Positions 11,576-30,563 of a DNA stretch of 64,000 bases are shown here, piece by piece. Source of the DNA: an uncultured bacterium (GTDB lineage Bacteria; Acidobacteriota; Thermoanaerobaculia; Multivoradales; J023); assembly GCA_965366625.1 (NCBI GenBank), contig CBDUGP010000024.1, forward strand, positions 3,767 to 67,766, written 5' to 3'. The first letter of the stretch is position 1, and each line of letters opens with the position of its first letter. A program made the position numbers and the translations under genes. Under the pieces are notes generated by a model. The model ran no database searches, was not told the origin of the DNA, and was given only the letters and a program-made list of their open reading frames with translations.

Positions 11576-14152
11576 ATGAGTTGGAGCAGTCTTAGAGATG
11601 CATTGTTGATGGCAGGGCTGATTGTCCCGCTATTCATCGGCTTACCCCAAGAGGTCTACGCACAAGACGATGGGGCCGAGCAGGAAGCCGCCGACGAGAA
11701 GGAAGACGAAGAAGCAGACAAGACCTTCTCTGAAGAGATCGTCGTCACCGGTAGTCGCGCGCAGCCTCGCTCTGCCGTCGAGTCCATGGTGCCGATCGAT
11801 GTGATCTCTTCGGACGATTTTGCCAACCAGGGTGATACCGACCTCAGCAATCAATTGCGTACCCTGGTCCCTTCCTACAACGTCAACACCCAGCCGATCA
11901 GTGACGCCGCCACGGTCGTGCGTCCTGCCAATCTGCGAAATTTGGCCCCCGATCACACCTTGGTGTTGATCAACGGCAAACGCCGCCATCGCGCCGCGGT
12001 CATCTACTGGCTCGGCAACGGTGTTGCCGACGGCGCCCAAGGTCCCGACATCTCCGCAATTCCGTCGATCGCCTTGCGCCAAGTGGAAGTCTTGCGTGAC
12101 GGTGCTTCGGCCCAATACGGTTCCGACGCCATCGCCGGCGTGATGAACTTCATGCTCAAAGACGCCCGCGAGGGTGGCAGCATCGAAGTGCGGACCGGTG
12201 GTTACTCCGAAGGCGACGGTGACACCCTCACCTTTGCCGGCAACGTGGGTTTGCCCCTTGGTGAGAACGGTTTCGCCAACCTGAGCGTTGAATTCGGCTC
12301 GTCCGACGCGACCAATCGCAGCGTGCAGCGTGACGACGCGGCCGGCCTGATCGCCGCCGGCAACACCAACGTGGCCAATCCGGCCCAGATCTGGGGTTCC
12401 CCCGAGGTCGAAGACGACCTCAAATTTTGGGGCAACTTTGGGCATCTGACCGAGAGCGGGAAGCAGCTCTACGCCCATACCAACTACCAATCGAAAAAGG
12501 TGACCGGCGGTTTCTACTTCCGTAATCCCAACAACCGTGGCGCCGTGTACAGCGGTGACGGCGGTTCGACCCTGTTGATCGGTGACTTGCTCGACGCCCA
12601 GGACGGTATCCTCGACGGATCCGCCGGCTGCCCGACGGTCAACATCGTCAACAACGTGCCCGATCCGGCGGCCCTTGCCGAAGTGTTCGCCAATCCGAAT
12701 TGCTTCTCCTTCCAAGAGCTCTTCCCGGGTGGTTTCACGCCGCAATTCGGCGGCGAGCTGACCGACACCTCGGTGGTGGCAGGTATCCGGGGTTCCTGGG
12801 AGAACGGCATGGCTTGGGACCTGAGCTTGAGCCACGGCCAGAACGAGGTGGATTTCTTCATCTCCAACACGGTGAACGCCTCCCTCGGCCCTGACACTCC
12901 GACCTCTTTCGATCCCGGTCTCTACAAGCAGACCGAACTCAACTTAAACTTCGACGTCTCTTACGCCGTCAACGACATGGCCAACATTGCGGCCGGTGTC
13001 GAGTGGCGTGACGAGGAATTCGAAATCGGTATCGGTCAGCTCGAGTCGTATCAAATCGGCCCGCTGGCGACCCAAGGTTTCAGCGCCGCTTCGAACGGTT
13101 TCCCGGGTTTTGGTGACATTGCCGCCGGCTCCTGGAGTCGGAGCAACTTCGCTTTATACGGTGATCTCGAGTTGGCGAAAGACGACAAATGGTCCATCGG
13201 CGTTGCGGTTCGTTTCGAGGACTTTGAGGACTTCGGTACGACCATGAACAGCAAGTTGGCCGGCCGTTATGCGGTCAACGAAGACTTTGCGATTCGTGCC
13301 AGCCTCAGCAGCGGTTTCCGCGCGCCGACGCCGGGTCAGTCCAACGCGTTCAACGTGTCGACCGAGTTTGACTTGGTGCTCATGGACTTGGTCAATAACG
13401 GTACGATTCCGCCGAGTTCGCGCGTCGCCCAATTGCGTGGTGGCGAGCCGCTCGAAGCCGAGACCTCCGTCAACTACGCCTTGGGCGCGGTTTATAACCG
13501 GGGTCCGTTCAACTTCACCGCGGATCTTTTCCGCATCGAGCTTTCTGATCGCTTGGCGGTCACCCAGCTCTTCTCCTTGACCCAGGACGAGGTTGATCAG
13601 CTGATCTCCGAAGGTGTGACGAGTGCCGGAAATCTGCAGAATTTCCGCTTCTTCACCAACGATTTCGATACCGAGACCACCGGTCTCGACATCGTGTCGA
13701 CCTACACGCCGTACGCCATGGACGGCCGGACGGTCTTCAGCTTCATCTTCAACTACACCGAGACCGACGTCACCAAATTCAATCCCGACACCCTCGACCA
13801 AACTCGTATTCGCGAGCTGCAAGAGGCCTTGCCGGAGATTCGTTGGAACGTCGCGGTCAACCACGCGGTGGGTGATTGGCGTCTGCTGTTCCGTGTCAGC
13901 TACTACGACGATTGGTTCGACTCCGAGGACGGCAACGTCTACGGCGGCAAGTATCTGGCCGATCTCGAAGCGGCTTACACCTGGAATGGTCACACCACGT
14001 TCGTGCTCGGCGGTCAGAACATCTTTGACGAGACCCCCGACGAGAATCCCGGTGCCCGGGCCGGTGTGGGCAACCTCTACAGCCAATTCTCCCCGTTCGG
14101 CTTCAACGGTGCGTTCTATTACGCCCGCGTGAAGTTCAAGTGGGGCAGCTGA
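11576..14152 (+). CDS. TonB-dependent outer-membrane receptor
   Basis: Signal peptide and an 'EEIVVTGSR' TonB-box/plug region. About 850 aa of beta-barrel composition rich in Gly, aromatic and Asn residues. Confidence 0.8.
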   Translation: MSWSSLRDALLMAGLIVPLFIGLPQEVYAQDDGAEQEAADEKEDEEADKTFSEEIVVTGSRAQPRSAVESMVPIDVISSDDFANQGDTDLSNQLRTLVPSYNVNTQPISDAATVVRPANLRNLAPDHTLVLINGKRRHRAAVIYWLGNGVADGAQGPDISAIPSIALRQVEVLRDGASAQYGSDAIAGVMNFMLKDAREGGSIEVRTGGYSEGDGDTLTFAGNVGLPLGENGFANLSVEFGSSDATNRSVQRDDAAGLIAAGNTNVANPAQIWGSPEVEDDLKFWGNFGHLTESGKQLYAHTNYQSKKVTGGFYFRNPNNRGAVYSGDGGSTLLIGDLLDAQDGILDGSAGCPTVNIVNNVPDPAALAEVFANPNCFSFQELFPGGFTPQFGGELTDTSVVAGIRGSWENGMAWDLSLSHGQNEVDFFISNTVNASLGPDTPTSFDPGLYKQTELNLNFDVSYAVNDMANIAAGVEWRDEEFEIGIGQLESYQIGPLATQGFSAASNGFPGFGDIAAGSWSRSNFALYGDLELAKDDKWSIGVAVRFEDFEDFGTTMNSKLAGRYAVNEDFAIRASLSSGFRAPTPGQSNAFNVSTEFDLVLMDLVNNGTIPPSSRVAQLRGGEPLEAETSVNYALGAVYNRGPFNFTADLFRIELSDRLAVTQLFSLTQDEVDQLISEGVTSAGNLQNFRFFTNDFDTETTGLDIVSTYTPYAMDGRTVFSFIFNYTETDVTKFNPDTLDQTRIRELQEALPEIRWNVAVNHAVGDWRLLFRVSYYDDWFDSEDGNVYGGKYLADLEAAYTWNGHTTFVLGGQNIFDETPDENPGARAGVGNLYSQFSPFGFNGAFYYARVKFKWGS

Positions 14153-14443: not shown

Positions 14444-14478
14444 CATTGGGGAGGGATGTCGGGACATCCCTCCCCAAT
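14444..14478 (-). terminator. Perfect palindromic hairpin just past the stop of giant gene A
   Basis: 'ttggggagggatgtcgggacatccctccccaa' lies 12 nt past the stop codon. Confidence 0.45.
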
Positions 14479-14487
14479 GGAAACGAC

Positions 14488-16230
14488 GCCTTATTGAGCG
14501 TTCACCACATGGATGTCCGCTTTGAGGTTGCCGCAGGTATCCAACGCCCGTGCTTTGACCTCGTGGTCGCCCGGGGAGGGGTTCCACATCAGGTCGTAGG
14601 GCGCGGTGTGGTCGGCTCCGATCAAGCTGCCGTCGACGAAGAACTGCACCTTTTCGATGCCGCTATCGTCGGACGCTTGGGCCGAGAGGCTGACGGGGGT
14701 GCCGGCGTTGAGGGTCGAGCCCGCGGCCGGGGTCACCAGGTTGATCCACGGCTTGGTGCTGTCGGCGTCGCAGCCGGCGGGATCACCGACGGTGACGGTG
14801 ATCTCCTGGGCCTTGAGGTTGCCGCACAGATCCGTGGCTCGCGCCTTGATCGTGTGGCTGCCCGGGGGCGCCGTCCAGGTGGTGGCATAGGGCGCGTCGA
14901 AGTCGGCTCCGATCAAGGCACCGTCGACGAAGAATTGCACTCTCTCCACACCGTTGGTGTCCGAGGCGTTGGCGGTCAGCCCGATCTGTCCCGGCGTCAG
15001 GCTTGCGCCGTTGGCTGGAGAGGTGACGGACACGGTCGGCAACACGTTGTCGGAATCGCAGGCGTTCGCCTGGCCGACGGTGATCGCAATCTCCGACGCC
15101 GCCATCCGTCCGCAGGTATCGATCGCCCGAGCCTTGAGGGTGTAGGCCCCCGGAGCCGCCTGCCAAGGCAAGCCATAGGGTGAACCGGTATCCGCGGCGA
15201 TCAACGTGCCGTCGACGAAGAATTGCACTTTCTCGATGCCGCTGGCGTCGGCCGCCGAGGCTTCGAGGTCGAGGGTGCCCGGGCTCACCAGATCTCCCTG
15301 CAAGGGCGAGACCCAGCCGATCGAAGGATCGGTGGAATCCACATCACAGCCGGACGGGTCGCCGACGGTGACGGTGATTTCCTGGGCCCTCATGTTGCCG
15401 CAGTGATCAATGCCTCGGGCCTTGATCGTGTGCACTCCGGGTCCCGGATTCCAGCTGCCTTGGTAAGGCGCCCACATATCCGCCGACAGCAGGTTGTCGT
15501 CGACGAAGAATTGCACCTTCTCGACGCCGCTGGTGTCGACGGCGGTCGCCGCCAAACTAACGGTTTGACCCGCGTTGAGCTGCCCGCCGTCGATCGGCGA
15601 GCTGATCTGCACCACCGGTCCCACGGAATCCGTGGAGCAATCCGCCGGGGCCTCGGTCACGGTGACCGTGTGGGCGGAGGAGGTGGCGGCCAAATTACAA
15701 CCGTCTACGGCCCTGGCGGTCACGCTGAAGGCCCCGGGCGTGGCGGCCCAGTCGAATTCGTACGGTGCTACGGAGTCGGTGCCGACCACGGTGCCACCCA
15801 CTTTGAATTCCACCGAGGCAATGCCGTTGGCATCACTGGCCGAGGCTTCCAAAGTCACGACCCCCTCGGTCAAGCTCGCCCCATGGGCCGGGCTGTCCAG
15901 GGTCACCACCGGGTAGGTGGAGTCGTTGGTGCAGTCTGCTTGCACCGTCAGCTGGTAGTTGAGGGTCCTGAAGTTGCCGCAGGAATCCCAGGCTCGGACC
16001 ATGATGTCGTGGACGCCGGGTGTGGCATTCCATGACCGGATCCAAGGCTCGGAGTGGAAGGTATCGGCCTCGCCGTCGATCCAGATTTTGACCCGATCCA
16101 CCAGATTCTCGTCGTCGGCGAAGGCCTGGATCGACACTGGTCCCGGAGGCAAAATCGAACCTGCCGAAGGCAAGACGCTCAGCCCGGGCCCTGCCGAGTC
16201 GGAGGCGCAGGGCCCTGCTCCGGCCGTGGT
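14488..16230. repeat. 1743-bp segment 100% identical to 20278..22020 (3' ends of the tandem paralogs)
   Basis: Direct comparison of the two loci. Identity begins about 3 nt past the stop codon. The first mismatch is at 16231 (22021 in the other copy). Confidence 0.9.
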
Positions 16231-19200
16231 TTCAAAGGTCAAGACCTCCATGGTCGGTGTTTGGATGCCCTGGGCGTCGTCGAGGGCCAGAATCAGCAGC
16301 TGGTGAGTGCCGTCCGGATAGTCGCTGACGTCGATGGTGGTGTTGATGGATCCCGTGGCTCCGCTCTCCGGGGTCTGGATTCCCTTGACCAACTGGTCGT
16401 CGATCCAGATCAAGAAACCGTCGACACCGTCTTCGTTGTCACGGGCGGTGAGATCGAGGGTCAGCAGTTCCAAACCGTTGGCCTGGGTCGTCTTGTAGGT
16501 CGATCCGAGGATCGTGGGGCCAGCGGTAGACCCGAATTCGCAATTCCACTTGCAGGTCGGTTGGTTCAGGGTGCAATCCTCGTAAAGGAAATTGCCTTGG
16601 GCATCGTAGACGTCTGTGCATTCCCAGGTCGGCTCCATATTCTGCGGGCATTCGTAGTTGCAATTCGAAGCGGGAACTCCCACGTCGAATGGCCACAGAT
16701 CCGTGGGCGGAGGGGTAACCTCTTGGATCAACTCGCGCAGCTCGCTGTCCTCCCACGAAGGGGGAGTCGGGTCGTCACAGGTTGTGCCCGATGGGCATTC
16801 GCAGTCCACGGTCACCGCTTTGAAGAAACCGTTGCCGGTATTGGCTTCGCCCACCACACCACTATTCTGGGGCGTCAAGGTGCAAACCTTGGCCTCGTTG
16901 CTTTGGTTGCGAATCTCCACCGAAAAGCCCGTGCCCACATGGGCGGACATATTCAGCGGAAAGAAACCGTTGCTGCCGATCAGTTTGCCGGAGGATTGTC
17001 CATCGTCGGCGTCGATGGTGATGGTCACGTATTCGGCGTAGTCGATGCCCGAGGCCGTGCCGCCCAAAGGCACGGGGTCGCACTCCAGACCGCCGTTGGT
17101 GCCGGTGCAAGCGGAGTTGCATTGAATAGATAGTGATAAATCCTGACTGCGGATCGTCGAAGATGCCGTGCCGCAGGCGGAGTTCGACGGATCGAAGGTG
17201 ACTTCGATCCCATCGGGCACTTTTTCGTTGAAAGTAACCTCGATATCGTCTTGTGGCGTGCCGAATTGGGTCACGGTCTTAGACGCTTGGTGTTGTTGTC
17301 CGTCGTCGATGTAGCTCCGTGTCACGGTCGTCGACGCACCGTTGGCCAGACCCTTGACCGTGACATCGGCATTGAAGAGTTTCTTGCAAGCAGGGCATTG
17401 GGCGTTGACTGCCAGCTTGAGCGGGGTCACCGAGGAAGTCGAGGTGAAACTAATTTGCCCCTCGGCGAGCAAACCGGGGATATTGCTTCCGATCGACACC
17501 CCGACGGTGACATCGCCGCAATAGCAGTAAATGCCGAAATCGTTACATTCCACGATCGCTGAGCCCAACGCGGCCTTGCCCCAAACCGCGCTGCCGTCGT
17601 TGGCGGTTTGGATCGAGGAGTCGGAGGCTACGACCAACGGCATGCCGTGGCAGCCGGGAGCGTGGTAGGTGGGGGAGGTCTCGTGACGATTCAAACTCCG
17701 CACCTGCGTCACGGCCACGTTGTCGCAATTCTCGTAGCACTGGCAAGTGAGGTCGACGGCTCCTTCGAAATAGTGATTGCCTTGGGTGTGTCCCTGGGCG
17801 TCGGTTTTTCGAATGACGTCATCCAGGGTTTCACCCGTGGTTTGATAGTCGATCTTCAAGCTCCGGCCGTCATACGGATAGTGGTTGGTGAAGGGATCTG
17901 CCTTGCATTGCTGACTCCCGGATTTCGAGTAGCTGGGTCGATAGTCTTCCAGGCCCGGGCCCGATTGGGCTGCGGCTGCCACGTCCAGGGCTTCTAGGCG
18001 TTGGTCGATGTTTTCCACGCCGACCAGCACGGGGTCGAGGATCAGATACTCGAGCTCGGCGGTGCTTGAGTTACGCAGCCACAAAGCCATCGCTCGATAG
18101 GTGCTGGAGTTGGATCCCAATTGGGCGGTTATTTCATAAGACGAAACGGCTTCCACCTCGAACGACCCGCCGTTGTTTTGAGAGTAGGCGCTCGCCACCA
18201 GGGCTGCGAGCTGGTCTACGTTGTTCGGTGCTTGATTGCGCCGCTCCTGCCAATCCTGGGTCTCTTCCGCAGTGTAGCTGCGCCAAACGCTGCGAATGGC
18301 AGTCTCGTCACCCGCGGGCCCGGAGTCGGTCACGGTTTGTAGACCGAATTGGCCGTTCGGGTCGAAAGCGTGTAGATCGACGGTATTCAGGCTCGCCAGC
18401 TCATCGGCGGCATAGTGGTCGAAGCTTTGGAATTCGACCTGCATCTCACCAAAGCTTTGATCTTGTGCTTCAACATAGACGGCGTAGTGCTGCTTCAAGA
18501 CATCCAAATGGTTTTGGCTCTGACCGAAAGCCAGCTGATCCCACCAAACGCTACGCCCGTTTTCGTCCACGTCTAAGCGAACGGAAGCGAAGGAAGCGGT
18601 CTCTGGGCAGGTGTGCTGGAGTTCCAGCTCCTGCCATTCGGTGTCCACGGTGGCTGAAAGAAGACCTGTGGACACGCCGAAGCCATAAGCCGAATCTAGG
18701 CAGATGATGCGCATTTGGACTGGCGTACCGGCAGCGTCGGCTTTGACCCAAGAGGAGAATCGGAGTGGGGTCTCGCCGTTCAGGGCGAGCAGGGCCGGTT
18801 CGGAAGAGCCTTGGTACGGAGTGGTAAAACCGTCGTGGTTTTGGGTGGCGGTCAACCGCAGGGAGAAGTCACCGGTCAGAGATTCGACCGTGTCGATCGC
18901 AACCGTGCCTTGGTGGGCGCTGAGGAAGGGCCTTTGCAAAACCCCCGATTCAAAGTCGGGATCTGGAATCCGATTGACGAAACCGCTCTTGTCCGTGAGC
19001 CGGACCTCGTCCCACCAGGTGGTGGCTCCCACGCCGTCGGTATCGAGACGGATCGAGGCGAATTTCGCCGCCGGATCGCAGCTGTGCTCCACCGCAATCC
19101 GTTGCCAATCAGTGCCCAGGGTGGCGGTTTGAGTGCCGACCGGGAACGCGGTGTATTCGTAGGTCTCGTCGAGGCAAAAGATTCGCAGCTGTGCCTGGGT

Positions 19201-20124
19201 GTTGGCGGTTGCCGCTTTAGCCCAAGCTGAAAGCTCAAAGTCTCCACCTTGGCCATCGAGGGCAACGACCCCGGATTTGGCGTTCACCCGATAGGGAAGG
19301 GTGAAGCTGTCGGCAGCCGTGGAGTCGTGGCGAAGGGCGTAATTGCCGACGTATTTTGTGTATGGGTCGAGGCTCACTGAGCCCTGCCACGCGGCGGCCA
19401 GGGGGGGAAGCAGCCCGCCGCTCTCAAAGCCGCCGTTGGCCAGCAGATTGGAGCCGCCGCCGCTGATCCGGTCGAGGGACACGTCGTCCCACCAGGTCAC
19501 GGTACCGGCCGCTGTGATCTGGAGCCGGACGCTGGCGAATCGGCTGCCCACCGGGCAGGTATGGGTCATGGAGACGGGAGTCCAATCGGTGCCGACGGTG
19601 AACGCCTGGCTGAGGAACGGATAGGCCAGGTATTCATAACTTTCGTCCAGGCAAAAAATAAACATCTTGACCGAACTCGCTGGGGTGTCGGCCTTGACCC
19701 AGGCCGAAAGCTCGAAGGCTTGCTCGCCCGAAATCGCGGTGACTGCGGCATCGGAGCTGTTGCGCCAAGGAGTTGTGTAGGCGTTGTTCTGGTTGGCGGT
19801 GAAGCGCAACGAAGCGTTGCCGGTCAAGGCCTCGGAGCTGTCGATGGCGACCTGACCTTTGGAGCTACCCTTGAATGGATCCTGCAACAGACCGCCCTCG
19901 AAGCTCGAATCGGGGATCAGATTTTCCGGATGAGGAAGCACTATGGACTGGGCGGATCCGGCCCCGAGGGACATGGCAATTAGGCAGGCGCCGAGGGGCA
20001 TGAATCCCCAAAGAGCACGGGCTCTATCCAAGAAAACATGGGGAATAGGCATGGAATCTCCTTGCTCAGCAGGTGAGCGGTGCGAGTCGATGTTGGGGTC
20101 GGAGAAGAGATTTCTCCGCTTCAA
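14491..20124 (-). CDS. Giant secreted multidomain protein A (1877 aa)
   Basis: Signal peptide. Four N-terminal repeats of a ~150-aa carbohydrate-binding-module-like domain ('FELSAWVKAD...FCLDESYEY...WWDDVSL'). A Cys-rich middle region. Five or more tandem Ig-like repeats at the C-terminus ('VQFFVDG...APY...W...PG.HT.KARA.D.CGN...EITVTV'). Tandem paralog of the 20281..25872 gene. Confidence 0.8.
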   Translation of the reverse strand: MKRRNLFSDPNIDSHRSPAEQGDSMPIPHVFLDRARALWGFMPLGACLIAMSLGAGSAQSIVLPHPENLIPDSSFEGGLLQDPFKGSSKGQVAIDSSEALTGNASLRFTANQNNAYTTPWRNSSDAAVTAISGEQAFELSAWVKADTPASSVKMFIFCLDESYEYLAYPFLSQAFTVGTDWTPVSMTHTCPVGSRFASVRLQITAAGTVTWWDDVSLDRISGGGSNLLANGGFESGGLLPPLAAAWQGSVSLDPYTKYVGNYALRHDSTAADSFTLPYRVNAKSGVVALDGQGGDFELSAWAKAATANTQAQLRIFCLDETYEYTAFPVGTQTATLGTDWQRIAVEHSCDPAAKFASIRLDTDGVGATTWWDEVRLTDKSGFVNRIPDPDFESGVLQRPFLSAHQGTVAIDTVESLTGDFSLRLTATQNHDGFTTPYQGSSEPALLALNGETPLRFSSWVKADAAGTPVQMRIICLDSAYGFGVSTGLLSATVDTEWQELELQHTCPETASFASVRLDVDENGRSVWWDQLAFGQSQNHLDVLKQHYAVYVEAQDQSFGEMQVEFQSFDHYAADELASLNTVDLHAFDPNGQFGLQTVTDSGPAGDETAIRSVWRSYTAEETQDWQERRNQAPNNVDQLAALVASAYSQNNGGSFEVEAVSSYEITAQLGSNSSTYRAMALWLRNSSTAELEYLILDPVLVGVENIDQRLEALDVAAAAQSGPGLEDYRPSYSKSGSQQCKADPFTNHYPYDGRSLKIDYQTTGETLDDVIRKTDAQGHTQGNHYFEGAVDLTCQCYENCDNVAVTQVRSLNRHETSPTYHAPGCHGMPLVVASDSSIQTANDGSAVWGKAALGSAIVECNDFGIYCYCGDVTVGVSIGSNIPGLLAEGQISFTSTSSVTPLKLAVNAQCPACKKLFNADVTVKGLANGASTTVTRSYIDDGQQHQASKTVTQFGTPQDDIEVTFNEKVPDGIEVTFDPSNSACGTASSTIRSQDLSLSIQCNSACTGTNGGLECDPVPLGGTASGIDYAEYVTITIDADDGQSSGKLIGSNGFFPLNMSAHVGTGFSVEIRNQSNEAKVCTLTPQNSGVVGEANTGNGFFKAVTVDCECPSGTTCDDPTPPSWEDSELRELIQEVTPPPTDLWPFDVGVPASNCNYECPQNMEPTWECTDVYDAQGNFLYEDCTLNQPTCKWNCEFGSTAGPTILGSTYKTTQANGLELLTLDLTARDNEDGVDGFLIWIDDQLVKGIQTPESGATGSINTTIDVSDYPDGTHQLLILALDDAQGIQTPTMEVLTFETTAGAGPCASDSAGPGLSVLPSAGSILPPGPVSIQAFADDENLVDRVKIWIDGEADTFHSEPWIRSWNATPGVHDIMVRAWDSCGNFRTLNYQLTVQADCTNDSTYPVVTLDSPAHGASLTEGVVTLEASASDANGIASVEFKVGGTVVGTDSVAPYEFDWAATPGAFSVTARAVDGCNLAATSSAHTVTVTEAPADCSTDSVGPVVQISSPIDGGQLNAGQTVSLAATAVDTSGVEKVQFFVDDNLLSADMWAPYQGSWNPGPGVHTIKARGIDHCGNMRAQEITVTVGDPSGCDVDSTDPSIGWVSPLQGDLVSPGTLDLEASAADASGIEKVQFFVDGTLIAADTGSPYGLPWQAAPGAYTLKARAIDTCGRMAASEIAITVGQANACDSDNVLPTVSVTSPANGASLTPGQIGLTANASDTNGVERVQFFVDGALIGADFDAPYATTWTAPPGSHTIKARATDLCGNLKAQEITVTVGDPAGCDADSTKPWINLVTPAAGSTLNAGTPVSLSAQASDDSGIEKVQFFVDGSLIGADHTAPYDLMWNPSPGDHEVKARALDTCGNLKADIHVVNAQ

Positions 20125-20195
20125 TGCCTAAGGCGCCATGTCCAACAAAAAAGACCCAGCCATTTGCCATGACGTTTTTATCTGTGAAATCTCCG

Positions 20196-20240
20196 GGTTC
20201 GGGGCCGACAAAAAAGGGGGTCTCCGAAGAGACCCCTCTT
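20196..20240 (-). terminator. Rho-independent terminator of giant gene B
   Basis: On the minus strand: 'ccaagaggggtctcttcggagaccccctttttt'. Confidence 0.7.
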
Positions 20241-20277
20241 GGCCGCCCAAAGGGCTCCGGTGCGGATCGCAAAAGCC

Positions 20278-22020
20278 GCCTTATTGAGCGTTCACCACAT
20301 GGATGTCCGCTTTGAGGTTGCCGCAGGTATCCAACGCCCGTGCTTTGACCTCGTGGTCGCCCGGGGAGGGGTTCCACATCAGGTCGTAGGGCGCGGTGTG
20401 GTCGGCTCCGATCAAGCTGCCGTCGACGAAGAACTGCACCTTTTCGATGCCGCTATCGTCGGACGCTTGGGCCGAGAGGCTGACGGGGGTGCCGGCGTTG
20501 AGGGTCGAGCCCGCGGCCGGGGTCACCAGGTTGATCCACGGCTTGGTGCTGTCGGCGTCGCAGCCGGCGGGATCACCGACGGTGACGGTGATCTCCTGGG
20601 CCTTGAGGTTGCCGCACAGATCCGTGGCTCGCGCCTTGATCGTGTGGCTGCCCGGGGGCGCCGTCCAGGTGGTGGCATAGGGCGCGTCGAAGTCGGCTCC
20701 GATCAAGGCACCGTCGACGAAGAATTGCACTCTCTCCACACCGTTGGTGTCCGAGGCGTTGGCGGTCAGCCCGATCTGTCCCGGCGTCAGGCTTGCGCCG
20801 TTGGCTGGAGAGGTGACGGACACGGTCGGCAACACGTTGTCGGAATCGCAGGCGTTCGCCTGGCCGACGGTGATCGCAATCTCCGACGCCGCCATCCGTC
20901 CGCAGGTATCGATCGCCCGAGCCTTGAGGGTGTAGGCCCCCGGAGCCGCCTGCCAAGGCAAGCCATAGGGTGAACCGGTATCCGCGGCGATCAACGTGCC
21001 GTCGACGAAGAATTGCACTTTCTCGATGCCGCTGGCGTCGGCCGCCGAGGCTTCGAGGTCGAGGGTGCCCGGGCTCACCAGATCTCCCTGCAAGGGCGAG
21101 ACCCAGCCGATCGAAGGATCGGTGGAATCCACATCACAGCCGGACGGGTCGCCGACGGTGACGGTGATTTCCTGGGCCCTCATGTTGCCGCAGTGATCAA
21201 TGCCTCGGGCCTTGATCGTGTGCACTCCGGGTCCCGGATTCCAGCTGCCTTGGTAAGGCGCCCACATATCCGCCGACAGCAGGTTGTCGTCGACGAAGAA
21301 TTGCACCTTCTCGACGCCGCTGGTGTCGACGGCGGTCGCCGCCAAACTAACGGTTTGACCCGCGTTGAGCTGCCCGCCGTCGATCGGCGAGCTGATCTGC
21401 ACCACCGGTCCCACGGAATCCGTGGAGCAATCCGCCGGGGCCTCGGTCACGGTGACCGTGTGGGCGGAGGAGGTGGCGGCCAAATTACAACCGTCTACGG
21501 CCCTGGCGGTCACGCTGAAGGCCCCGGGCGTGGCGGCCCAGTCGAATTCGTACGGTGCTACGGAGTCGGTGCCGACCACGGTGCCACCCACTTTGAATTC
21601 CACCGAGGCAATGCCGTTGGCATCACTGGCCGAGGCTTCCAAAGTCACGACCCCCTCGGTCAAGCTCGCCCCATGGGCCGGGCTGTCCAGGGTCACCACC
21701 GGGTAGGTGGAGTCGTTGGTGCAGTCTGCTTGCACCGTCAGCTGGTAGTTGAGGGTCCTGAAGTTGCCGCAGGAATCCCAGGCTCGGACCATGATGTCGT
21801 GGACGCCGGGTGTGGCATTCCATGACCGGATCCAAGGCTCGGAGTGGAAGGTATCGGCCTCGCCGTCGATCCAGATTTTGACCCGATCCACCAGATTCTC
21901 GTCGTCGGCGAAGGCCTGGATCGACACTGGTCCCGGAGGCAAAATCGAACCTGCCGAAGGCAAGACGCTCAGCCCGGGCCCTGCCGAGTCGGAGGCGCAG
22001 GGCCCTGCTCCGGCCGTGGT
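20278..22020. repeat. Second copy of the 1743-bp perfect repeat
   Basis: Identical to 14488..16230. Confidence 0.9.
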
Positions 22021-25000
22021 CTCGAAGGTCAAGACCTCCATGGTCGGTGTTTGGATGCCCTGGGCATCGTCGAGGGCGAGGATCATCAGTTGGTGACTGC
22101 CGTCGGGATAGTCGCTGACGTCCAATGTGGTGGAGATCGAGCCGGTGGGACCTGCTTCCGGAGTTTGGATTCCCTTGACCAGCTGGTCGTCGATGAAGAT
22201 CAAGAAGCCATCGACGCCGTCTTCGTTGTCCCGAGCGGTGAGATCGATGTTCAGCAGCTCCAGGCCGCTGTCCCCGGTCGACTTGAGGGTCGAGCCGGTG
22301 ATCGAGGGGCCGGATTTGAATCCGAAGTCGCATTCCCATCTGCAAGTTGGCTGATCGAGCGTGCAATCCTCGTAGAGAAAATTGCCTTCATCGTCGTAGA
22401 CGTCGGTGCATTCAAAGGTCGGTTCCATATTTTCTGGGCAGTTGTAGTCGCAGCTCGGCGCGGGCACGCCGACATCGAAGGGCCATAGATCGTGAGACGG
22501 CGGATTGATTTGCTGCAGGATCGATCGGAGTTCACCATCTTCCCAAGAAGGAGGTGTGGGATCCTCGCACTCGCCGCCCGCCGGGCATTGGCAGTCGAGG
22601 TGAACGACGTTGAAGAAGCTGTTGTTGTTGGTGTTCGCTGGTCCAACGACCCCGCCGTTCTGCGGGCTCAAGGTACAGACCTTGTTTTCATTGCTTTGGG
22701 CCAGGATACTCACGGAGAAACCCGTTCCTTCTGCGGCGGAAACGTTGAAGGGATAGAAACCGTCGCTTCCCACCAACTTGCCGCCGGTCTGCCCATCGCC
22801 GGTGGTGATCAGCAAATTCACGTGCTCCGAGTGGCTAATCCCCGAAGCGGTGCCGCCCAGCGCCACATCGGGGCAGGGGTCGTTTACGCCTCCGCAATTG
22901 CCTCCACAGTGAATGCTCAGAGCTAAGTCTTCTCCGCGCACAAAGGACCGAGCCTCGCCACAGGAGGGGTGAGTGGTGGTGAAGGTCACTTGGGCTCCAT
23001 CGGGCACACGACCAGGGAATTGGACCTCGATGTCGTCGTTGGCTGTTCCGGATTGTTGAGCTGTTCCGAAAGCTTGGATCAGCCGGCCATCGTCGATATA
23101 GGAGCGTTCGATGGTAGCTGTTTGGCCGTTAGCGAGTCCTTTGACCGTGACATCGGCAAAGAAGAGGCGGGTGCAGGCCGGGCATTGGGCGCTGGCTGCG
23201 ATCTTGAGGGGAATTTCGTCCAGCTCAACGTTCATGGTGATTCCGGCTTCGATCAAAGCAACGCTACCGTCTCCGCTGGTCAAGCCGACATTGACGGTAA
23301 AGTCGCTGCAATAGCAACCGATGCCGAAATCAGCACATTCCTTGAGTCCATAACCCATAGCAGCATGACCCCAAACGGCACCGCCGCCGTTGTTGGTTTG
23401 GGTGGAGTCGGCGTGGGCCACAGCGAAAGGGGTTGTATGGCACCCGGGGCCATGGTGGATCCTGGGGCTGTCGTAGCCCCGCAGGTTGTACACTCGAGTC
23501 GTGGCCACATTGTCGCAGTTCTCATAACACTGGCAAGTTAGGTCGACCGCACCCTCGAACCAATGGTTGCCGCTTTCGTGGCCCTGGTTGTCTGTCTTGC
23601 GAATCGCTCGGTCCATGGCCACGCCGGTAGTTTGGATATCGATGTCTAGATTTCTGCCGTGATAGCGGTAGGTCTCCGGGAAGGTGTCCTCCTTGCAACT
23701 AGGGTTGCCGCTCTTGGCGCGGCGGTCGACTCTCTTCGGTGCCGGACCGGCTTTTTTCTCGTTCATCGCCTTTTCCGCTAGGGAAAGCGCTTCGATTCGC
23801 TGGTCGATGTTGGCGACACCCACCAGCACCGGGTCGACGATGACGTATTGGCTCTCGCCACTGACGGTGTCCGTGAGCCAAACGCTGAGCGCTCGATACT
23901 GGCTAGAGTTGGATCCGTAGGAAACTTGAACCTCGAAGGTGGACAACCCTTCCACTTGGAAGGTAGCGGGGCTGTTCAGGATCGCATACTCCTGGGCCAC
24001 CAGTGTGACCAGCGCCTCAGCAGTGGTGGGCGCTTGAGCGATCTTGGTTTGCCAAGCTTGAACTTCGTCGGCCCCGTAGTGGCGCCACACGCTTTGGAGC
24101 CAGGCCTCCGCGGACATCGCTGGACCGTTGTCGTTGACCCCGAATTTCAGGTCGAATTGACCGTTGGGATCGAAGGCGAAGAGATTAGCGGTGCTCAAGG
24201 CGGCGAGTTCGTCGGTCTGGTAGTGATCAAAGCTTTGAAAGTCGATGTCAATTTGCCCGAAGCTTTGATCCTGGGCCTCGGCGTAAATGGCGTAATGCTC
24301 GCGCAAGATGTCGTAAGGGGTCGCGCCAAGACCGAAAGCGAGCTGATCCCACCACACGGTGCTGCGGTTTTGGTCGACATCGAGTCGGATGCCCGCGAAG
24401 GATGCGGTTTCCGGGCAGGTGTGCTCCAGGCTCAAGCGCTGCCAATCGGTGCCCACGGTGGTCATCTCTAATCCGGTGGAGATGCCGGGGGCATAGGCCG
24501 CGTCGAGGCAATAGATTCGCAGCTCCACGGGCACGTCGGCGGAGTCGGCCTTGGCCCACGCGGAGAGCCGAAGCGGCGTCTCACCATCGAGGGCGATCAG
24601 GGCGGAACGATCAGAGCCTTGGTAAGGGGTGGTGAAACCGTCGTTGTTGTCGGTCGTGGTCAGCTTGAGGGAATAGGACCCGGTGAGCGAGACGCCGGCG
24701 TCGATGTCGAGGGTGGCGCGCACCGCTCCGAGCATGGGGCGTTGCAAGGCTCCGGATTCGAAGTCGGGGTCTGGAATCAGGTTGACGAAGTGGTTCTCGT
24801 CGACGAGGCGCACCTCGTCCCACCAGGTGGTGGCACCGGCGCCGTCCGTATCGAGGCGAATGGAAACAAACTTCGCACCGGGTTCGCAGCTGTGCTCAAG
24901 GCTCACCTTCTGCCAATCGGTGCCGACGCTGAAGGTGTCGATAGCCGAGGGATAGGTGAGGTGGTCATAACCGGCGTCCAAGCAGAAGATCCGCAGTTGG

Positions 25001-25872
25001 GTTTGGGTGCCGGCGGCGGTCGCTTTGACCCAAGCCGACAGTTCGAGCTTGCCGCCATCTTCGTCCAAAGGCAGGACCGCCGCTTCGGGGCTGAGTTGGA
25101 AGGGTTGGGTGTAGCTGTCGGGGCCCGTCGCATCGTGGCGCAAGCTATAGCGCCCGATCCATCGAATAGAGCTGTCGAAGCTCAGGGATCCCGACCAAGC
25201 CCCGGTCATCGACGCCGGCAACGTGGATCCTTCAAAGCTGCCGTTGGCCAGAAGGTTGGAGCCTCGCTGCTCGGTCCGGGTCAGGCTGACGTCGTCCCAC
25301 CAAGTGATGCTTCCGGTGGTCACCGTTTGCAGGCGGACACTGGCGAAGCTGCTGCCCGTCGGGCAGGTGTGAGTCAACGAAATCGGGCTCCAATCGGTGC
25401 CCGCAGTGAAAGTGTCGCTGGCCGATGGATAGGTTTGAAAGTCATAACTCTCGTCGAGGCAGAAAAGATACAGCTTGACCGATCGACCCGCGGTGTCGGC
25501 CTTGACCCACGCCTTGAGTTCAAAGCTTTCCTCGCCCGATACGGTGGCCACGGCAGCCCGGGGGCTCAAGCGCCAGTCGAGGGTGTAGGCGTTGGTGTCG
25601 TCGGCGCTCAAGCGCAATGAGGTGTCGCCGGTCAGAGCTTCGGTGGTGTCGAGGGCGAGCTGTCCGCGTGCGGCGCTGGTGAAAGGATCCTGGAGCGAGC
25701 CGCTTTCAAAGCTCGAATCCACGAGCAGGTTCCCGGTGTGGGGCAGCAAGTCTGAGTAGGCTGGTGCGGTTCCGCCGACCAAAACGGCCAGGCAACCTAT
25801 AAGGGCAAGCCGGTGGCGCAACGCCAAGGCTCGGCCCTTCAATCGGCTTTTGAGAAAGTGAAGGTGGGACAT
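20281..25872 (-). CDS. Giant secreted multidomain protein B (1863 aa), tandem paralog of A
   Basis: Same architecture as A. The C-terminal ~580 aa (1743 bp including the stop) are identical to A. The N-terminal ~1250 aa are diverged, at roughly 60-75% amino-acid identity by eye. Confidence 0.8.
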   Translation of the reverse strand: MSHLHFLKSRLKGRALALRHRLALIGCLAVLVGGTAPAYSDLLPHTGNLLVDSSFESGSLQDPFTSAARGQLALDTTEALTGDTSLRLSADDTNAYTLDWRLSPRAAVATVSGEESFELKAWVKADTAGRSVKLYLFCLDESYDFQTYPSASDTFTAGTDWSPISLTHTCPTGSSFASVRLQTVTTGSITWWDDVSLTRTEQRGSNLLANGSFEGSTLPASMTGAWSGSLSFDSSIRWIGRYSLRHDATGPDSYTQPFQLSPEAAVLPLDEDGGKLELSAWVKATAAGTQTQLRIFCLDAGYDHLTYPSAIDTFSVGTDWQKVSLEHSCEPGAKFVSIRLDTDGAGATTWWDEVRLVDENHFVNLIPDPDFESGALQRPMLGAVRATLDIDAGVSLTGSYSLKLTTTDNNDGFTTPYQGSDRSALIALDGETPLRLSAWAKADSADVPVELRIYCLDAAYAPGISTGLEMTTVGTDWQRLSLEHTCPETASFAGIRLDVDQNRSTVWWDQLAFGLGATPYDILREHYAIYAEAQDQSFGQIDIDFQSFDHYQTDELAALSTANLFAFDPNGQFDLKFGVNDNGPAMSAEAWLQSVWRHYGADEVQAWQTKIAQAPTTAEALVTLVAQEYAILNSPATFQVEGLSTFEVQVSYGSNSSQYRALSVWLTDTVSGESQYVIVDPVLVGVANIDQRIEALSLAEKAMNEKKAGPAPKRVDRRAKSGNPSCKEDTFPETYRYHGRNLDIDIQTTGVAMDRAIRKTDNQGHESGNHWFEGAVDLTCQCYENCDNVATTRVYNLRGYDSPRIHHGPGCHTTPFAVAHADSTQTNNGGGAVWGHAAMGYGLKECADFGIGCYCSDFTVNVGLTSGDGSVALIEAGITMNVELDEIPLKIAASAQCPACTRLFFADVTVKGLANGQTATIERSYIDDGRLIQAFGTAQQSGTANDDIEVQFPGRVPDGAQVTFTTTHPSCGEARSFVRGEDLALSIHCGGNCGGVNDPCPDVALGGTASGISHSEHVNLLITTGDGQTGGKLVGSDGFYPFNVSAAEGTGFSVSILAQSNENKVCTLSPQNGGVVGPANTNNNSFFNVVHLDCQCPAGGECEDPTPPSWEDGELRSILQQINPPSHDLWPFDVGVPAPSCDYNCPENMEPTFECTDVYDDEGNFLYEDCTLDQPTCRWECDFGFKSGPSITGSTLKSTGDSGLELLNIDLTARDNEDGVDGFLIFIDDQLVKGIQTPEAGPTGSISTTLDVSDYPDGSHQLMILALDDAQGIQTPTMEVLTFETTAGAGPCASDSAGPGLSVLPSAGSILPPGPVSIQAFADDENLVDRVKIWIDGEADTFHSEPWIRSWNATPGVHDIMVRAWDSCGNFRTLNYQLTVQADCTNDSTYPVVTLDSPAHGASLTEGVVTLEASASDANGIASVEFKVGGTVVGTDSVAPYEFDWAATPGAFSVTARAVDGCNLAATSSAHTVTVTEAPADCSTDSVGPVVQISSPIDGGQLNAGQTVSLAATAVDTSGVEKVQFFVDDNLLSADMWAPYQGSWNPGPGVHTIKARGIDHCGNMRAQEITVTVGDPSGCDVDSTDPSIGWVSPLQGDLVSPGTLDLEASAADASGIEKVQFFVDGTLIAADTGSPYGLPWQAAPGAYTLKARAIDTCGRMAASEIAITVGQANACDSDNVLPTVSVTSPANGASLTPGQIGLTANASDTNGVERVQFFVDGALIGADFDAPYATTWTAPPGSHTIKARATDLCGNLKAQEITVTVGDPAGCDADSTKPWINLVTPAAGSTLNAGTPVSLSAQASDDSGIEKVQFFVDGSLIGADHTAPYDLMWNPSPGDHEVKARALDTCGNLKADIHVVNAQ

Positions 25873-26163: not shown

Positions 26164-26658
26164 TTGAAGCGCCTCTTCCCAAGCCTCGCCCCGCGTGGGC
26201 CAATAGCTCAAAAGCTCGTGATCCTAATGCTGCCCTTGATGTTCCTGGCGCTCTCCATTTCCTCCCAAGAGGCGGATTCCCAGGCGAGCGCAGACGACGC
26301 ACCCGCGCCTGCCGCCGCGGCTGCCGGCGGCGATGTCGAACGGGGCAAATACCTCGTCGAAGGGGTGGGGATGTGCGGTCAATGCCACTCGCCCCGCGAT
26401 ACCAAGGGCAATGCGGAAATGGACGAGTGGCTGCACGGTGGCCCCGTACCGGTCACCACGCCCCAGGGTTACGAAAAATGGGCCTACAAGGCTCCTCGGA
26501 TCGCGGGTCTGCCCCAGCACACCGACGAAGAATTCGTCACTCTCATGACCACGGGCATCAATCGCGACGGCAAAAAGCCGATGGCACCCATGCCTCCCTT
26601 CCGGATCACGGAAGAAGACGCCCTGGCGATCGCGGCCTACCTTCGCAGCCTGCCGTGA
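26164..26658 (+). CDS. Monoheme c-type cytochrome
   Basis: Signal peptide and a single CXXCH motif ('CGQCHS'). Confidence 0.75.
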   Translation: MKRLFPSLAPRGPIAQKLVILMLPLMFLALSISSQEADSQASADDAPAPAAAAAGGDVERGKYLVEGVGMCGQCHSPRDTKGNAEMDEWLHGGPVPVTTPQGYEKWAYKAPRIAGLPQHTDEEFVTLMTTGINRDGKKPMAPMPPFRITEEDALAIAAYLRSLP

Positions 26659-26749: not shown

Positions 26750-27628
26750 CTACTGGAGCCAGTAGTTGACCGTGAAGTAGAAATGCACCGCCACCGGTTT
26801 GCCCTGGTGGACGGTGGGTTTGAACTTCCACTGATAGACCCCTTCGATCGCCTTCTGATCGAGGCCGAAGGGAAGGCCTTTGATGACCTTGAGATTGCGG
26901 ACGTTACCCTCTTCGTCGACGATTCCCTGCAAGATCACCACCCCTTGGATCCGCCGTTGACGCGCTTCTTCCGTGTAGAGGGGTTGGGGTTTGTGGATGG
27001 CCACCGGTTTCGGAACCCCATCGCCGATTTCCAGCGCATCGCCGGTGTAGCGTCCGGTGCCGAATTGTCCACCGTCCGAGGGCGGTGCATCGGGAATGCC
27101 GAAGACCATCTCGGTAATATTGGTCGGTTCGAGATCCGGAATGTCGATTTCTTCTTCCACGATCGGTTCGGGTTCGTCCGGCGTGGGATCGGGAATCGGT
27201 ATCTTCTTGGCCTTCTTCTTCGGAATCTCTTGCTTAGTGGGTGCCGCTTTGGCAGGCGGTTTTTTGAACCGTGCCTGTTTCATGACGAAGACTTTGCCGG
27301 GTTTGCCGACGAATTCAGGCGCCCGTCGGGCGCTGGGAAAGGTCACGAAGAAGAGCATGAGGTGAAAAACCAGGGCTGCCATTGCCGCCCAGCGAAAACG
27401 TCGACGGTCGTTGAGGCTACCGCTTTCGAGCTGGGCGAGGATCAGCTCCGCCGAACTCAAAGCGGCTTCGGAGCCTTGCTCGTCGGTGCTCGGCGGCTGA
27501 GGCTCCGGCACTTGAGGAGTAGGCGTCGGAGTAGACGTCGCCCCCCCGTGGAGCGGTGCTGTGGGTCTGGAATCCAAGCTCGAATCAGGGCTCATATTGC
27601 GTGCGAGAGTCGTAATGCTTCCTGGCAT
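26750..27628 (-). CDS. tonB: TonB energy transducer (orphan, no exbBD adjacent)
   Basis: N-terminal TM segment. Pro/Glu/Lys-rich spacer ('PIPDPTPDEPEPIVEEEIDIPD'). C-terminal TonB domain. Confidence 0.8.
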   Translation of the reverse strand: MPGSITTLARNMSPDSSLDSRPTAPLHGGATSTPTPTPQVPEPQPPSTDEQGSEAALSSAELILAQLESGSLNDRRRFRWAAMAALVFHLMLFFVTFPSARRAPEFVGKPGKVFVMKQARFKKPPAKAAPTKQEIPKKKAKKIPIPDPTPDEPEPIVEEEIDIPDLEPTNITEMVFGIPDAPPSDGGQFGTGRYTGDALEIGDGVPKPVAIHKPQPLYTEEARQRRIQGVVILQGIVDEEGNVRNLKVIKGLPFGLDQKAIEGVYQWKFKPTVHQGKPVAVHFYFTVNYWLQ

Positions 27629-28217: not shown

Positions 28218-30563
28218 ATGACCGTTCGATTCGAGATCCGGAATCAGCCCCTGGGGCTCGTCGCATGGATGGCTTGCGCCCTGTGCCTGACTTTCTACGC
28301 TTTCCCGGTCGTGGCCGAGACCCCCGGAGTTGGGGATGTCGCCGGCAACGGCAACATCCAGGCGGACGAGGCTGTCGCGATCGCCGACAACGAGACCGAC
28401 AACGAGACCGACAACGAGACCGACAACGAGACCGAGGTTTCGACAGCCCGGGACGAGGTGATCTACGAGCGGGTGACGGTGGTCGGAAATGCTGAGAAGG
28501 CGGCGAGGATTCCCGGCTCGGTCCACGTGATCGGCGCGTTGGACTTAGCCAAATTCCGCTATGAGGACGTGCACCGGATCTTGCGTCAAGTGCCCGGGGT
28601 CAACATCCAAGAAGAGGACGGTTACGGCTTGCGACCCAACATCGGTATGCGCGGGACCGGTGTGGAGCGCAGCCAAAAGGTGACCCTGCTCGAAGACGGC
28701 GTGTTGATCGCTCCGGCCCCTTATTCGGCGCCGTCGGCCTATTACAGCCCGACCGCAGGGCGGATGGAGGCCTTGGAGGTGCGCAAGGGTTCGTCGTCGA
28801 TCCGTCAGGGCCCCCAAACCAACGGCGGCGTGGTCAATTACGTTTCGACCGCCATCCCCGGAGACCGGCGAATCTCCCTCGACCTCTCCGGCGGCACCGA
28901 CAACACCTTCAAGCTCAAGGGAAGCGCCGGCCTTTCGACCGAGCGATTCGGATTCTTGGTGGAGGCCTACCAGCACAGCACCGACGGCTTCAAAGCGTTG
29001 GACGGCGGTGGCGACACGGGATTCGAACTCGAGGACTACCTGACCAAGTTGCGCTGGACCTCGGCACCGGAGGCTCTGATTTTCCAAAGCCTGGAGCTCA
29101 AGCTCGGCCACACGGAGCAAAGAGGTGACGAAACCTACCTGGGTTTGACCTCGGCAGATTTCGAGGTCACCCCTTTTCGGCGTTATGCCGGCTCCCAGGA
29201 AGATCGGATCGACACCGATCACGACAGCTTTTCTTTGGCGTGGACCTTGATTCCGCGGCAGGACTTTGAGGTCACCACCACGGTTTATCGCAACGAATTT
29301 TTCCGCAATTGGTATAAGAACGAGTCGACCCTGGGCGTGGGAAACTCCAATATTTTGGGCTCGCCGGACCTCTACTCCGACGCCTTGGCCGTGCTGCGCG
29401 GTGAGGTGAATAGCGTTGACGATGCCCTCAAGCTGCGCAACAACCGTCGCGAATATTATTCCCAGGGCATCCAAACCACCCTCGGTTGGCGGCCGAACGC
29501 CCACCACGACGTGGAGGTGGGAATCCGGGTGCACGAAGACGAGGAAGATCGTCTGCAAGAAGAAGACGGTTATGCCATGCGCGACGGTCGTTTGGTGCTG
29601 ACCAGCTTCGGCGTTTCCGGCAGCCAAGCCAATCGCGTGGCGACGGCCGAAGCGGTGGCGATTTTCGTGCAAGACGAGATTACCTTCGGCAAGCTCAAGT
29701 TGGTTCCCGGGCTGCGTTACGAGACCGTGGACACGGAACGGCGGGACTACGGGCGATCCGATGCCGAGCGCACCGGTGCGGATCTCCAATTCCGCAACAA
29801 CTCCTTCGATGCGTGGATGCCTGGTCTCGGGATCCACTACGAGGTGGGTCATGGTTGGGGTCTGTTCGGCGGTGTGCATCGCGGATACGCACCGCCCAGC
29901 CCGTCGAGCACCGATGAAGTGGAACCCGAGGATAGTGTCAATTGGGAACTCGGTACCCGATTCCAAAAAGGCGACACCCAGCTCGAGCTGGTCGGTTTCT
30001 TCAGCGACTACTCCAACCTCCTCGGCGCCGACACCTTCTCCGGCGGCGGCACGGGAACCGGTGATCAATTCAATGGCGGTGATGTGGACGTGATGGGTTT
30101 GGAGGCGGGTTGGCGTCGCGTGGTCGGACGTGGGGACGGCTGGCAGTTGCCGTTGAACGTCACCTACACCTACACCCAGGGCGAGTTCCGTTCCAATTTC
30201 GCCACCAGCTTCGCCGATTGGGCCCCGGAGGTTTCCGTGGGCGACGAGCTGCCCTACCTGCCGGAGCATCAGCTCTATGTGGAACTCGGAATCCAGACGG
30301 ACCGCTGGAGCGTGTTTGCCAACGCTGGATATGTGTCGGAAATGCGCACCACCGCCGGTCAGGGTGCCATCGCCCCGGACGAGCGCATCGAGGACCATTT
30401 GGTTTTCGATTTGGGGGCCACCTGGCAAGTTTCCGATCGTTACGGTTTCGTGCTCAACGTCCGCAACCTGACGGACGAGGTCTATGTGGCGGCACGTCGG
30501 CCCTACGGTCTGCGTCCTGGAATCTCTCGCCAAACCACGGCGGGCATCAAGCTACGCTTCTGA
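28218..30563 (+). CDS. TonB-dependent outer-membrane receptor with an N-terminal (DNET)4 repeat extension
   Basis: Signal peptide, plug region and a C-terminal '...AGIKLRF' ending in Phe. Confidence 0.85.
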   Translation: MTVRFEIRNQPLGLVAWMACALCLTFYAFPVVAETPGVGDVAGNGNIQADEAVAIADNETDNETDNETDNETEVSTARDEVIYERVTVVGNAEKAARIPGSVHVIGALDLAKFRYEDVHRILRQVPGVNIQEEDGYGLRPNIGMRGTGVERSQKVTLLEDGVLIAPAPYSAPSAYYSPTAGRMEALEVRKGSSSIRQGPQTNGGVVNYVSTAIPGDRRISLDLSGGTDNTFKLKGSAGLSTERFGFLVEAYQHSTDGFKALDGGGDTGFELEDYLTKLRWTSAPEALIFQSLELKLGHTEQRGDETYLGLTSADFEVTPFRRYAGSQEDRIDTDHDSFSLAWTLIPRQDFEVTTTVYRNEFFRNWYKNESTLGVGNSNILGSPDLYSDALAVLRGEVNSVDDALKLRNNRREYYSQGIQTTLGWRPNAHHDVEVGIRVHEDEEDRLQEEDGYAMRDGRLVLTSFGVSGSQANRVATAEAVAIFVQDEITFGKLKLVPGLRYETVDTERRDYGRSDAERTGADLQFRNNSFDAWMPGLGIHYEVGHGWGLFGGVHRGYAPPSPSSTDEVEPEDSVNWELGTRFQKGDTQLELVGFFSDYSNLLGADTFSGGGTGTGDQFNGGDVDVMGLEAGWRRVVGRGDGWQLPLNVTYTYTQGEFRSNFATSFADWAPEVSVGDELPYLPEHQLYVELGIQTDRWSVFANAGYVSEMRTTAGQGAIAPDERIEDHLVFDLGATWQVSDRYGFVLNVRNLTDEVYVAARRPYGLRPGISRQTTAGIKLRF
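28386..28433 (+). repeat. Perfect 12-bp x4 tandem repeat (gacaacgagacc) inside the TBDR N-terminal extension
   Basis: Seen directly. It encodes DNETDNETDNETDNET. Confidence 0.9.

Follow-up and report, generated by a model that had tools for sequence, protein, structure and literature searches.

The tufA/tufB pair is an example of the concerted evolution of duplicated bacterial genes. A survey of prokaryotes has shown that paralogs within a genome can be more alike than orthologs through recurrent gene conversion (PMC6053082). In the LigA and LigB proteins of Leptospira, approximately 2 kb covering six and a half immunoglobulin-like (Ig-like) domains is identical or nearly so, while the rest is unique; in strain Fiocruz L1-130 the identity spans -266 to +1890 of the lig genes, for which both duplication and recombination have been documented (PMC7821625). 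The babA, babB, and babC genes of Helicobacter pylori share a C-terminal homology region of >90% identity and carry a variable middle or head region (PMC4552749), and the same source, citing Pride and Blaser (2002), attributes chimeric genes and concerted evolution at the bab loci to intragenomic gene conversion. Conversion between paralogs over a kilobase or less is also described for the repeat-rich antigen genes of Mycobacterium tuberculosis, in two reports that further describe how such events are distorted or hidden in short-read assemblies and resolved by long reads (PMC12046097, PMC13061034). Here we describe a tandem pair of giant genes, A and B, in a 64,000-nucleotide stretch of contig CBDUGP010000024.1 (assembly GCA_965366625.1; hereafter the window) from an uncultured bacterium of the Acidobacteriota (Thermoanaerobaculia). 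The pair adds a further case to a known process, from a phylum that has been little studied and a protein family that is rare, and offers a clean natural case of module-limited concerted evolution in these uncultured bacteria, while opening no new question in recombination biology.

The two genes are head-to-tail neighbours on the minus strand, as seen in the list of open reading frames (ORFs). Gene A (14491..20052) encodes a multidomain secreted protein of 1853 amino acids with a signal peptide (P0002), and gene B (20281..25872), directly upstream of A, begins with ATG and encodes a protein of 1863 amino acids with an A-like architecture (P0001). An earlier note on this DNA had recognised the pair as head-to-tail paralogs and had placed B correctly; its start for A, at 20124, is the point to which the ORF extends, and we assign the start to the ATG at 20052, which is preceded by an AAGGAG ribosome-binding site and yields the 1853 amino acids of the public gene calls. 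Each gene was also said to have its own terminator, and terminator-like hairpins on the minus strand do follow both, one of 16 pairs (9 of them G-C) behind A at 14444..14479 and one of 8 pairs with a T-run behind B at 20236-20217. The unique spacer between B and A (20053..20280, minus strand) contains the B terminator, the A leader, and the A ribosome-binding site. A scan of this spacer for sigma-70-type promoters found none, and no inverted repeats were found around the repeated unit.

Window positions 14487-16230 and 20277-22020 are identical without exception over 1744 bp, at an offset of 5790, both in a fixed-offset comparison and by BLAST (100%). The exact identity of the 3' ends had thus been seen correctly in the earlier note, and only its extent (1743 bp from 14488) required correction. 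Copy 1 (14487..16230) consists of the last 1737 coding nucleotides of A, the stop codon, and 4 further nucleotides, and copy 2 (20277..22020) is the corresponding 3' end of B; comparison of the window with itself by BLAST found no third copy there. The tract encodes all six Big_7 (Ig-like) units and begins 7 residues ahead of the first Cys of unit 1. Past its edge the first mismatches occur at 16231 and 16234, followed by 8 more in 16276-16333, and the homology of A and B continues collinearly from this edge to the start codons. Nucleotide identity is 94% over the first 100 nt past the boundary, approximately 75-81% over the next 400 nt or so, and 55-70% farther on. The abrupt drop that had been reported is therefore real, and the accompanying figure of 75-80% applies no farther than the first ~500 bp; the 5' 3.8 kb averages 64.4% at the nucleotide level, with roughly 59% amino acid identity and a third-position identity of ~45%. 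With 1355 mismatches over 5550 aligned nucleotides of A and B, the probability of finding none in 1744 bp under a uniform spread is 10^-222. Within either gene the Big_7 units are only 65-82% identical to one another, so that exchange must have taken place in register between the genes and not among the units of one gene.

The resemblance of this arrangement to LigA/LigB lies in the presence of two Ig-like-domain paralogs with one near-identical block and an otherwise unique remainder. However, the lig block comprises the 5' end together with the promoter and contains Big_2 domains, whereas that of A and B is a 3' end with Big_7 domains, and their upstream regions are unrelated. Moreover, ligA arose from ligB by a partial duplication that lost the C-terminus, and Leptospira is a host-associated pathogen, while A and B have carbohydrate-binding-module (CBM)-like heads and belong to an environmental member of the Acidobacteriota; the likeness to Lig is one of process and not of family. 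The bab loci are dispersed and encode outer-membrane beta-barrel proteins, whereas A and B are in tandem, and bab conversion also moves phase-variable repeats and switches adhesin expression, while there is no evidence of switching in A/B. The cases in the prokaryotic survey are mostly whole genes with core functions; in A and B a single module has been homogenised and the rest is saturated with change. Finally, the M. tuberculosis cases involve other gene families in another context and come from complete long-read genomes, whereas A and B are known from contigs alone. One practical consequence is that trees built from the C-terminal module would group A and B by genome, while N-terminal trees would separate them as old paralogs.

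We interpret A and B as old tandem paralogs whose 3' ends have repeatedly undergone non-reciprocal interlocus gene conversion, with the Ig-like tail evolving in concert, and assign this reading a probability of about 0.82. A metagenome-assembled genome (MAG), Thermoanaerobaculia bacterium Co_bin.310 (Acidobacteriota; loci L001 and L002), carries a single gene of this kind, C (P0003, 1860 amino acids), and the flanks of C are syntenic with the window on both sides, with the receptor downstream and the TonB gene, the cytochrome c-like gene, and a kinase gene upstream. In the 5' part, C has ~80% amino acid identity to A and ~58% to B, and the nucleotide identity of A to C is ~78%, compared with ~62% for A to B. 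The A leader is conserved upstream of C in L001 (90% over 40 bp), and the region upstream of B is unrelated. By these sequence comparisons C is the ortholog of A, and because the MAG is without B, B either predates the split of A and C or came from outside. At the tract boundary the A-C identity is continuous, whereas the B-C identity rises from ~0.6 to ~0.85; within the tract, identity to C is 80-87% at the nucleotide level and reaches 94% in one best-conserved block. The two copies in the window are therefore more alike than either is to C, they are homogenised at synonymous sites as well, and the tract of zero mismatches is a discrete, abrupt-edged block inside continuous homology.

Estimates of synonymous (dS) and nonsynonymous (dN) divergence by the Nei-Gojobori method, with C as the single-copy ortholog, place these observations in order. 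In the 5' part, A and B are separated by a saturated dS of 1.64 and a dN of 0.34 (dN/dS 0.21), and dS is 1.07 for A-C and 1.84 for B-C. Saturated dS together with dN/dS near 0.2 indicates that A and B are old functional paralogs, both under constraint. The N-terminal modules have thus diverged, as had been stated earlier, although the dN/dS of 0.21 points to purifying selection and not to diversification driven by selection. In the 110 codons that adjoin the tract (16231-16560), A-B dS is 0.60 and dN 0.13, while dS to C is 0.50 for A and 0.65 for B. This zone of intermediate divergence occupies 16231..16500 of A on the minus strand (~270-330 bp, the edge near 16500 being approximate), opposite 22021-22290 of B, and is probably an older conversion layer. 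Within the tract itself, A-B dS and dN are both 0, and dS to C is 0.61 for A and B alike, with a proportion of synonymous differences (pS) of 0.42. At least three layers can be told apart: the ancient separation of the two genes, an exchange roughly as old as the A/C split, and another that is very recent. An outgroup and a sister strain together thereby date three age layers in one gene pair.

These values also decide the case for extreme purifying selection on the C-terminal module without any recombination. The module is indeed the best conserved at the protein level, with a dN to the ortholog of 0.075, compared with 0.12 in the 5' part. However, every synonymous site in the tract is identical between A and B, yet synonymous change relative to C has accrued normally, and the tract codons differ at ~1% between two strains. 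Selection at the protein level cannot freeze third positions in one comparison alone, so the synonymous contrast refutes this explanation, to which we attach almost no credence. We also considered GC-biased conversion and found no signal of it. GC content at third codon positions is 0.82 in the tract and 0.72-0.73 in the 5' parts, but a like contrast (0.84 vs 0.77) is present in C, and weak-to-strong and strong-to-weak changes are balanced (90 vs 86).

A third related locus, L003, allows the pair to be compared between strains. It is an 18-kb contig (European Nucleotide Archive analysis ERZ25043434) that is 98.8-99.2% identical to the window and carries B (truncated by the contig end), the spacer, A, and the receptor in the same arrangement. 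For this comparison the final 2.7 kb of both genes in each of the two strains was aligned, and C served as the outgroup. In the 960 bp upstream of 16231, there are 265 paralog-specific sites and 26 sites private to one sequence, and none that groups the sequences by strain. In the core common to both tracts (14494-16036), each of the 15 variable sites unites the A and B copies within a strain and none is private (15/15 vs 0/26; Fisher's exact test, p = 1.6e-11). When polarised by C, 9 of the core sites are derived in the lineage of the window and 5 in that of L003, and 1 could not be polarised. The perfect tract of L003 is 1568 bp long (window-equivalent 14491-16058), and its 5' edge thus falls at 16058 as compared with 16230 in the window. 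In the intervening 167 bp (16059-16225), A of L003 has 22 private differences, while A and B of the window and B of L003 agree. At face value, homogenisation would have taken place after the strains split, in both lineages and with different edges, as in concerted evolution that is still under way. The contrast in dS, the stepwise layers, the tract of the sister strain, and the 15 of 15 strain-specific alleles all support the proposal in the earlier note of recent gene conversion with concerted evolution of the C-terminal module. Comparison of related loci for copy number and tract boundaries, as that note suggested, shows a single copy in the MAG and a tandem pair with a different tract edge in L003.

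Several observations outside the core also distinguish the two strains. Divergence is uneven along the locus, with no differences in 2.8 kb of the 5' part of B (22316-25116), ~1.7% in the 5' part of A (16423-20052), and 0.57% in the flanks; at the flank rate, the absence of differences in B has a probability of 1e-7. Such unevenness points to a locus made mosaic by recent inter-strain recombination, or to a sweep. Next to the invariant part of B, 8 differences between the window and L003 fall within 56 bp (22254-22309), B being otherwise identical for 2.8 kb, and 4 of the 8 bring B of L003 to the A allele, interleaved with B-type sites. Either a patchy micro-conversion or a single mutation of several nucleotides may lie behind this cluster. 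A candidate A-to-B patch in L003 (window-equivalent 16474-16496) was set aside and not used as evidence, as A-type sites are interleaved there with B-type and private ones. L003 also has a 105-bp insertion (4926-5030) between the B terminator and the start of A, at the window-equivalent point 20194. The two ends of the insertion resemble an intergenic element at 30590-30742 in the window, upstream of the kinase gene, with a common head (CAAACyATTGATTrTAAA) and a common tail (CTACCTCCGGrGGTTTGCGGGCGTAGyCCGCTAAGT), the tail being 91% identical over 45 bp. We regard the insertion as a small repeat of dispersed type whose presence varies between strains, and it has no match in Rfam.

Some points weigh against repeated conversion as we have described it. 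All of the evidence comes from assembled contigs. De Bruijn graph assemblers represent near-identical repeats as one edge that is traversed twice and pop the bubbles caused by single-nucleotide differences, so that the copies come out 100% identical by construction. The earlier warning of an assembly-collapse hazard was apt, as the collapse of copies that differ by ~1% would mimic the strain-specific alleles, and the pattern in the core cannot separate collapse from homogenisation. The difference in tract edge hangs on the single 167-bp patch in which A of L003 is the odd one out, and because the outgroup matches A of L003 at only 4 of the 22 patch sites, the patch could be an import into L003 and not the mark of a longer conversion on the window side. 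The tract is at a dS of 0.61 from C, between the adjacent zone's figures for A-C (0.50) and B-C (0.65), and gives no direction of conversion; A had at first been taken as the donor from the closeness of the tract to C, and this was withdrawn, as B in the adjacent zone is almost as near to C as A is. Sampling is also thin, with only three related loci (L001, L002, and L003) in the public collections that were searched. A scan of genome contigs for further loci returned just the one MAG, two scans of metagenome contigs (by protein patterns and by a conserved DNA pattern) returned no further locus, and an exact look-up of the window proteins returned 0 contigs on record.

Collapse is the most serious of the competing explanations. 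If the 3' ends are truly ~98-99.9% alike and were merged during assembly, then an old conversion would be real, and both the figure of 100% and the homogenisation after the strain split would be artefacts. L003 (its contig name taking the form NODE_..._cov_5.9) and the MAG are SPAdes-style contigs at ~5-6x coverage, the repeat of 1.6-1.7 kb exceeds the usual short-read inserts, and the succession of B 5' part, repeat, spacer, A 5' part, repeat, and flank is a simple loop that a graph assembler can traverse without spanning reads. In addition, four copies that had each gained approximately 7-8 private changes since a conversion older than the strain split would, with a random consensus, be expected to give ~15 sites common to both copies of a strain, and 15 were observed. 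On the other hand, collapse presupposes copies that are already nearly identical and cannot make the contrast with the 64% upstream. The L003 copies were kept apart in the assembly where they differ by 13% (window-equivalent 16059-16225) and the window copies are identical there, so collapse alone does not explain the difference in tract length between the two assemblies; SPAdes-style naming is, moreover, established for L003 and the MAG and not for the window. We consider this explanation possible but less probable by a good measure than repeated conversion. In either case, it is secure that conversion is much younger than the paralogs, since the copies must share at least ~98-99% identity, compared with 64% for the remainder of the genes.

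A misassembled arrangement, in which a chimeric contig was joined through the common domain or one gene was artificially doubled, is a separate matter. The source is metagenomic and repeats are classic sites of graph mis-joins. However, with 36% of nucleotides different and a dN/dS of 0.2, the 5' parts belong to two genes, and had a chimera formed through the repeat, a single hybrid gene would have resulted and not the order B, spacer, A. The unique spacer joins a repeat copy to the start of A, so that a genome with the A 5' part has a second repeat copy upstream and the tandem arrangement is forced. The same order is found again in an independent assembly from another sample, and the outer flanks on either side match, in gene order, a single locus of a related genome. 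An artefact of this kind is therefore very unlikely.

The pair could also be a mosaic by origin. After a recent tandem duplication of A, a distant homolog may have replaced the promoter and 5' 3.8 kb of the upstream copy, or a foreign 5' part may have been fused to a copy of the A 3' end in one illegitimate event. This would account for the presence of a B ortholog in the sister strain only and in neither the MAG nor elsewhere in the databases, as well as for the lack of relationship between the region upstream of B and the A leader. The identity of the B 5' part between strains over 2.8 kb, beside flanks that are 0.57% apart, also fits a recent arrival or a sweep. Yet A and B are collinear over their full length, the 3' end of the tract coincides exactly with the end of homology, and a single junction does not predict the intermediate zone with its dS of 0.6. 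More events are required, namely an illegitimate upstream crossover in addition to a duplication, and the strain-specific edges and the alleles common to both copies would still require exchange after the pair arose. We regard a mosaic origin as doubtful.

Under repeated gene conversion, homologous recombination between the direct copies would overwrite the 3' end of either gene with that of its neighbour, presumably in a RecA-dependent manner and either within one chromosome or between sister chromosomes. The latest such event would have homogenised 1744 bp. Its 3' limit would be the end of homology, and the tract halts 4 nt past the stop codon, since A and B are followed by unrelated sequences. 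Its 5' limit may be set by divergence that blocks strand exchange or heteroduplex extension, and the 5' parts would be shielded from conversion once past roughly 20% divergence. With such shielding, the boundary would sharpen itself while the Ig-like tail evolves in concert. The tract edge of L003 falls inside Big_7 unit 1, which argues against an exchange unit that is strictly defined by domains. A recombination pathway of this type, mismatch-dependent rejection at the edge, and any selective benefit of a common tail are inferences. The 1.7-kb direct repeat also offers a substrate on which the 5.8-kb unit can be deleted or amplified, and it can mislead short-read assembly, read mapping, and variant calling.

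A and B share the same order of parts, with a signal-peptide-like segment, three CBM_4_9-like repeats of ~158 amino acids, a central region, and six Big_7 units. The Ig-like and CBM-like labels given to the two ends in the earlier note agree with the Pfam matches. Big_7 (PF17957) scores 326.6 and 327.8 bits (cutoff 24.1; E 1e-99) with six stretches per protein, and each of the six units carries a Cys pair. CBM_4_9 (PF02018) scores 29.9 bits in A and 35.3 bits in B as whole proteins, and 38.8 bits against the N-terminal 509 amino acids of A (cutoff 25.9 throughout). An OmpL47-type domain of NCBIfam is also matched, at 85-88 bits against a cutoff of 40. The central region of ~690 amino acids is Cys-rich, and behind it lies a seventh Ig-like unit with only a weak match (Big_7 E 0.3). 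The central region has no sequence match in Pfam, NCBIfam, or PDB, and its relatives number 19 among 1.84 billion representative proteins, several of them fused to CBM96 or to other Ig-like domains. An AlphaFold model of this region from 3 sequences had a predicted local distance difference test (pLDDT) score of 38 and was unusable.

The triple CBM_4_9-like head is also found in two other proteins, P0004, where it is joined to a GH5 cellulase with Big_7 domains, and P0005, where its partner is an RHS-repeat protein. The head modules of A and B (window 18526-20052 and 24316-25872; ~510 amino acids) have 41-50% identity to those heads, and judged by this distribution the head is a portable module. 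A and B may bind or process glycans outside the cell, as products of a TonB-dependent uptake locus. In the window the tract coincides with the whole six-unit Ig-like tail, and it is conceivable, though speculative, that this exchange unit is no accident and that recurrent conversion has been selected because different heads have to be presented on one identical stalk that docks to a single partner, such as the TonB-dependent uptake machinery encoded on either side of the pair. The tandem pair would then allow heads to diverge or be swapped while the stalk stays uniform.

A TonB-dependent receptor gene (11576..14152, plus strand; Pfam Plug and TonB_dep_Rec_b-barrel) converges with A and is kept beside the ortholog of A in both related loci. 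The upstream flank of B includes a cytochrome c-like gene (26164..26658, plus strand) and a TonB gene (26750..27628, minus strand), both syntenic with the upstream flank of C. A second TonB-dependent receptor gene lies upstream of the pair (28218..30563, plus strand) and lacks a counterpart in the MAG locus L001, of which ~25 kb was compared. We examined the co-duplication of a receptor with each giant protein and rejected it, as the two receptors are not similar. The MAG has a three-gene insertion (DUF899, AHSA1, and an ArsR-type regulator) beside C.

Rfam and tRNA scans of the window found nothing. Elsewhere in the window, an intergenic tandem repeat at 36289-36493 has an 80-bp unit in 2.6 copies with 99% matches. 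A plus-strand ORF of 4195 amino acids at 44573-57160 encodes a further giant protein, of surface or secreted type, with approximately 20 SdrD_B units, many CarboxypepD_reg-like units, a proprotein-convertase P domain, and, at its C-terminus, a Peptidase_C25 (gingipain-type) domain.

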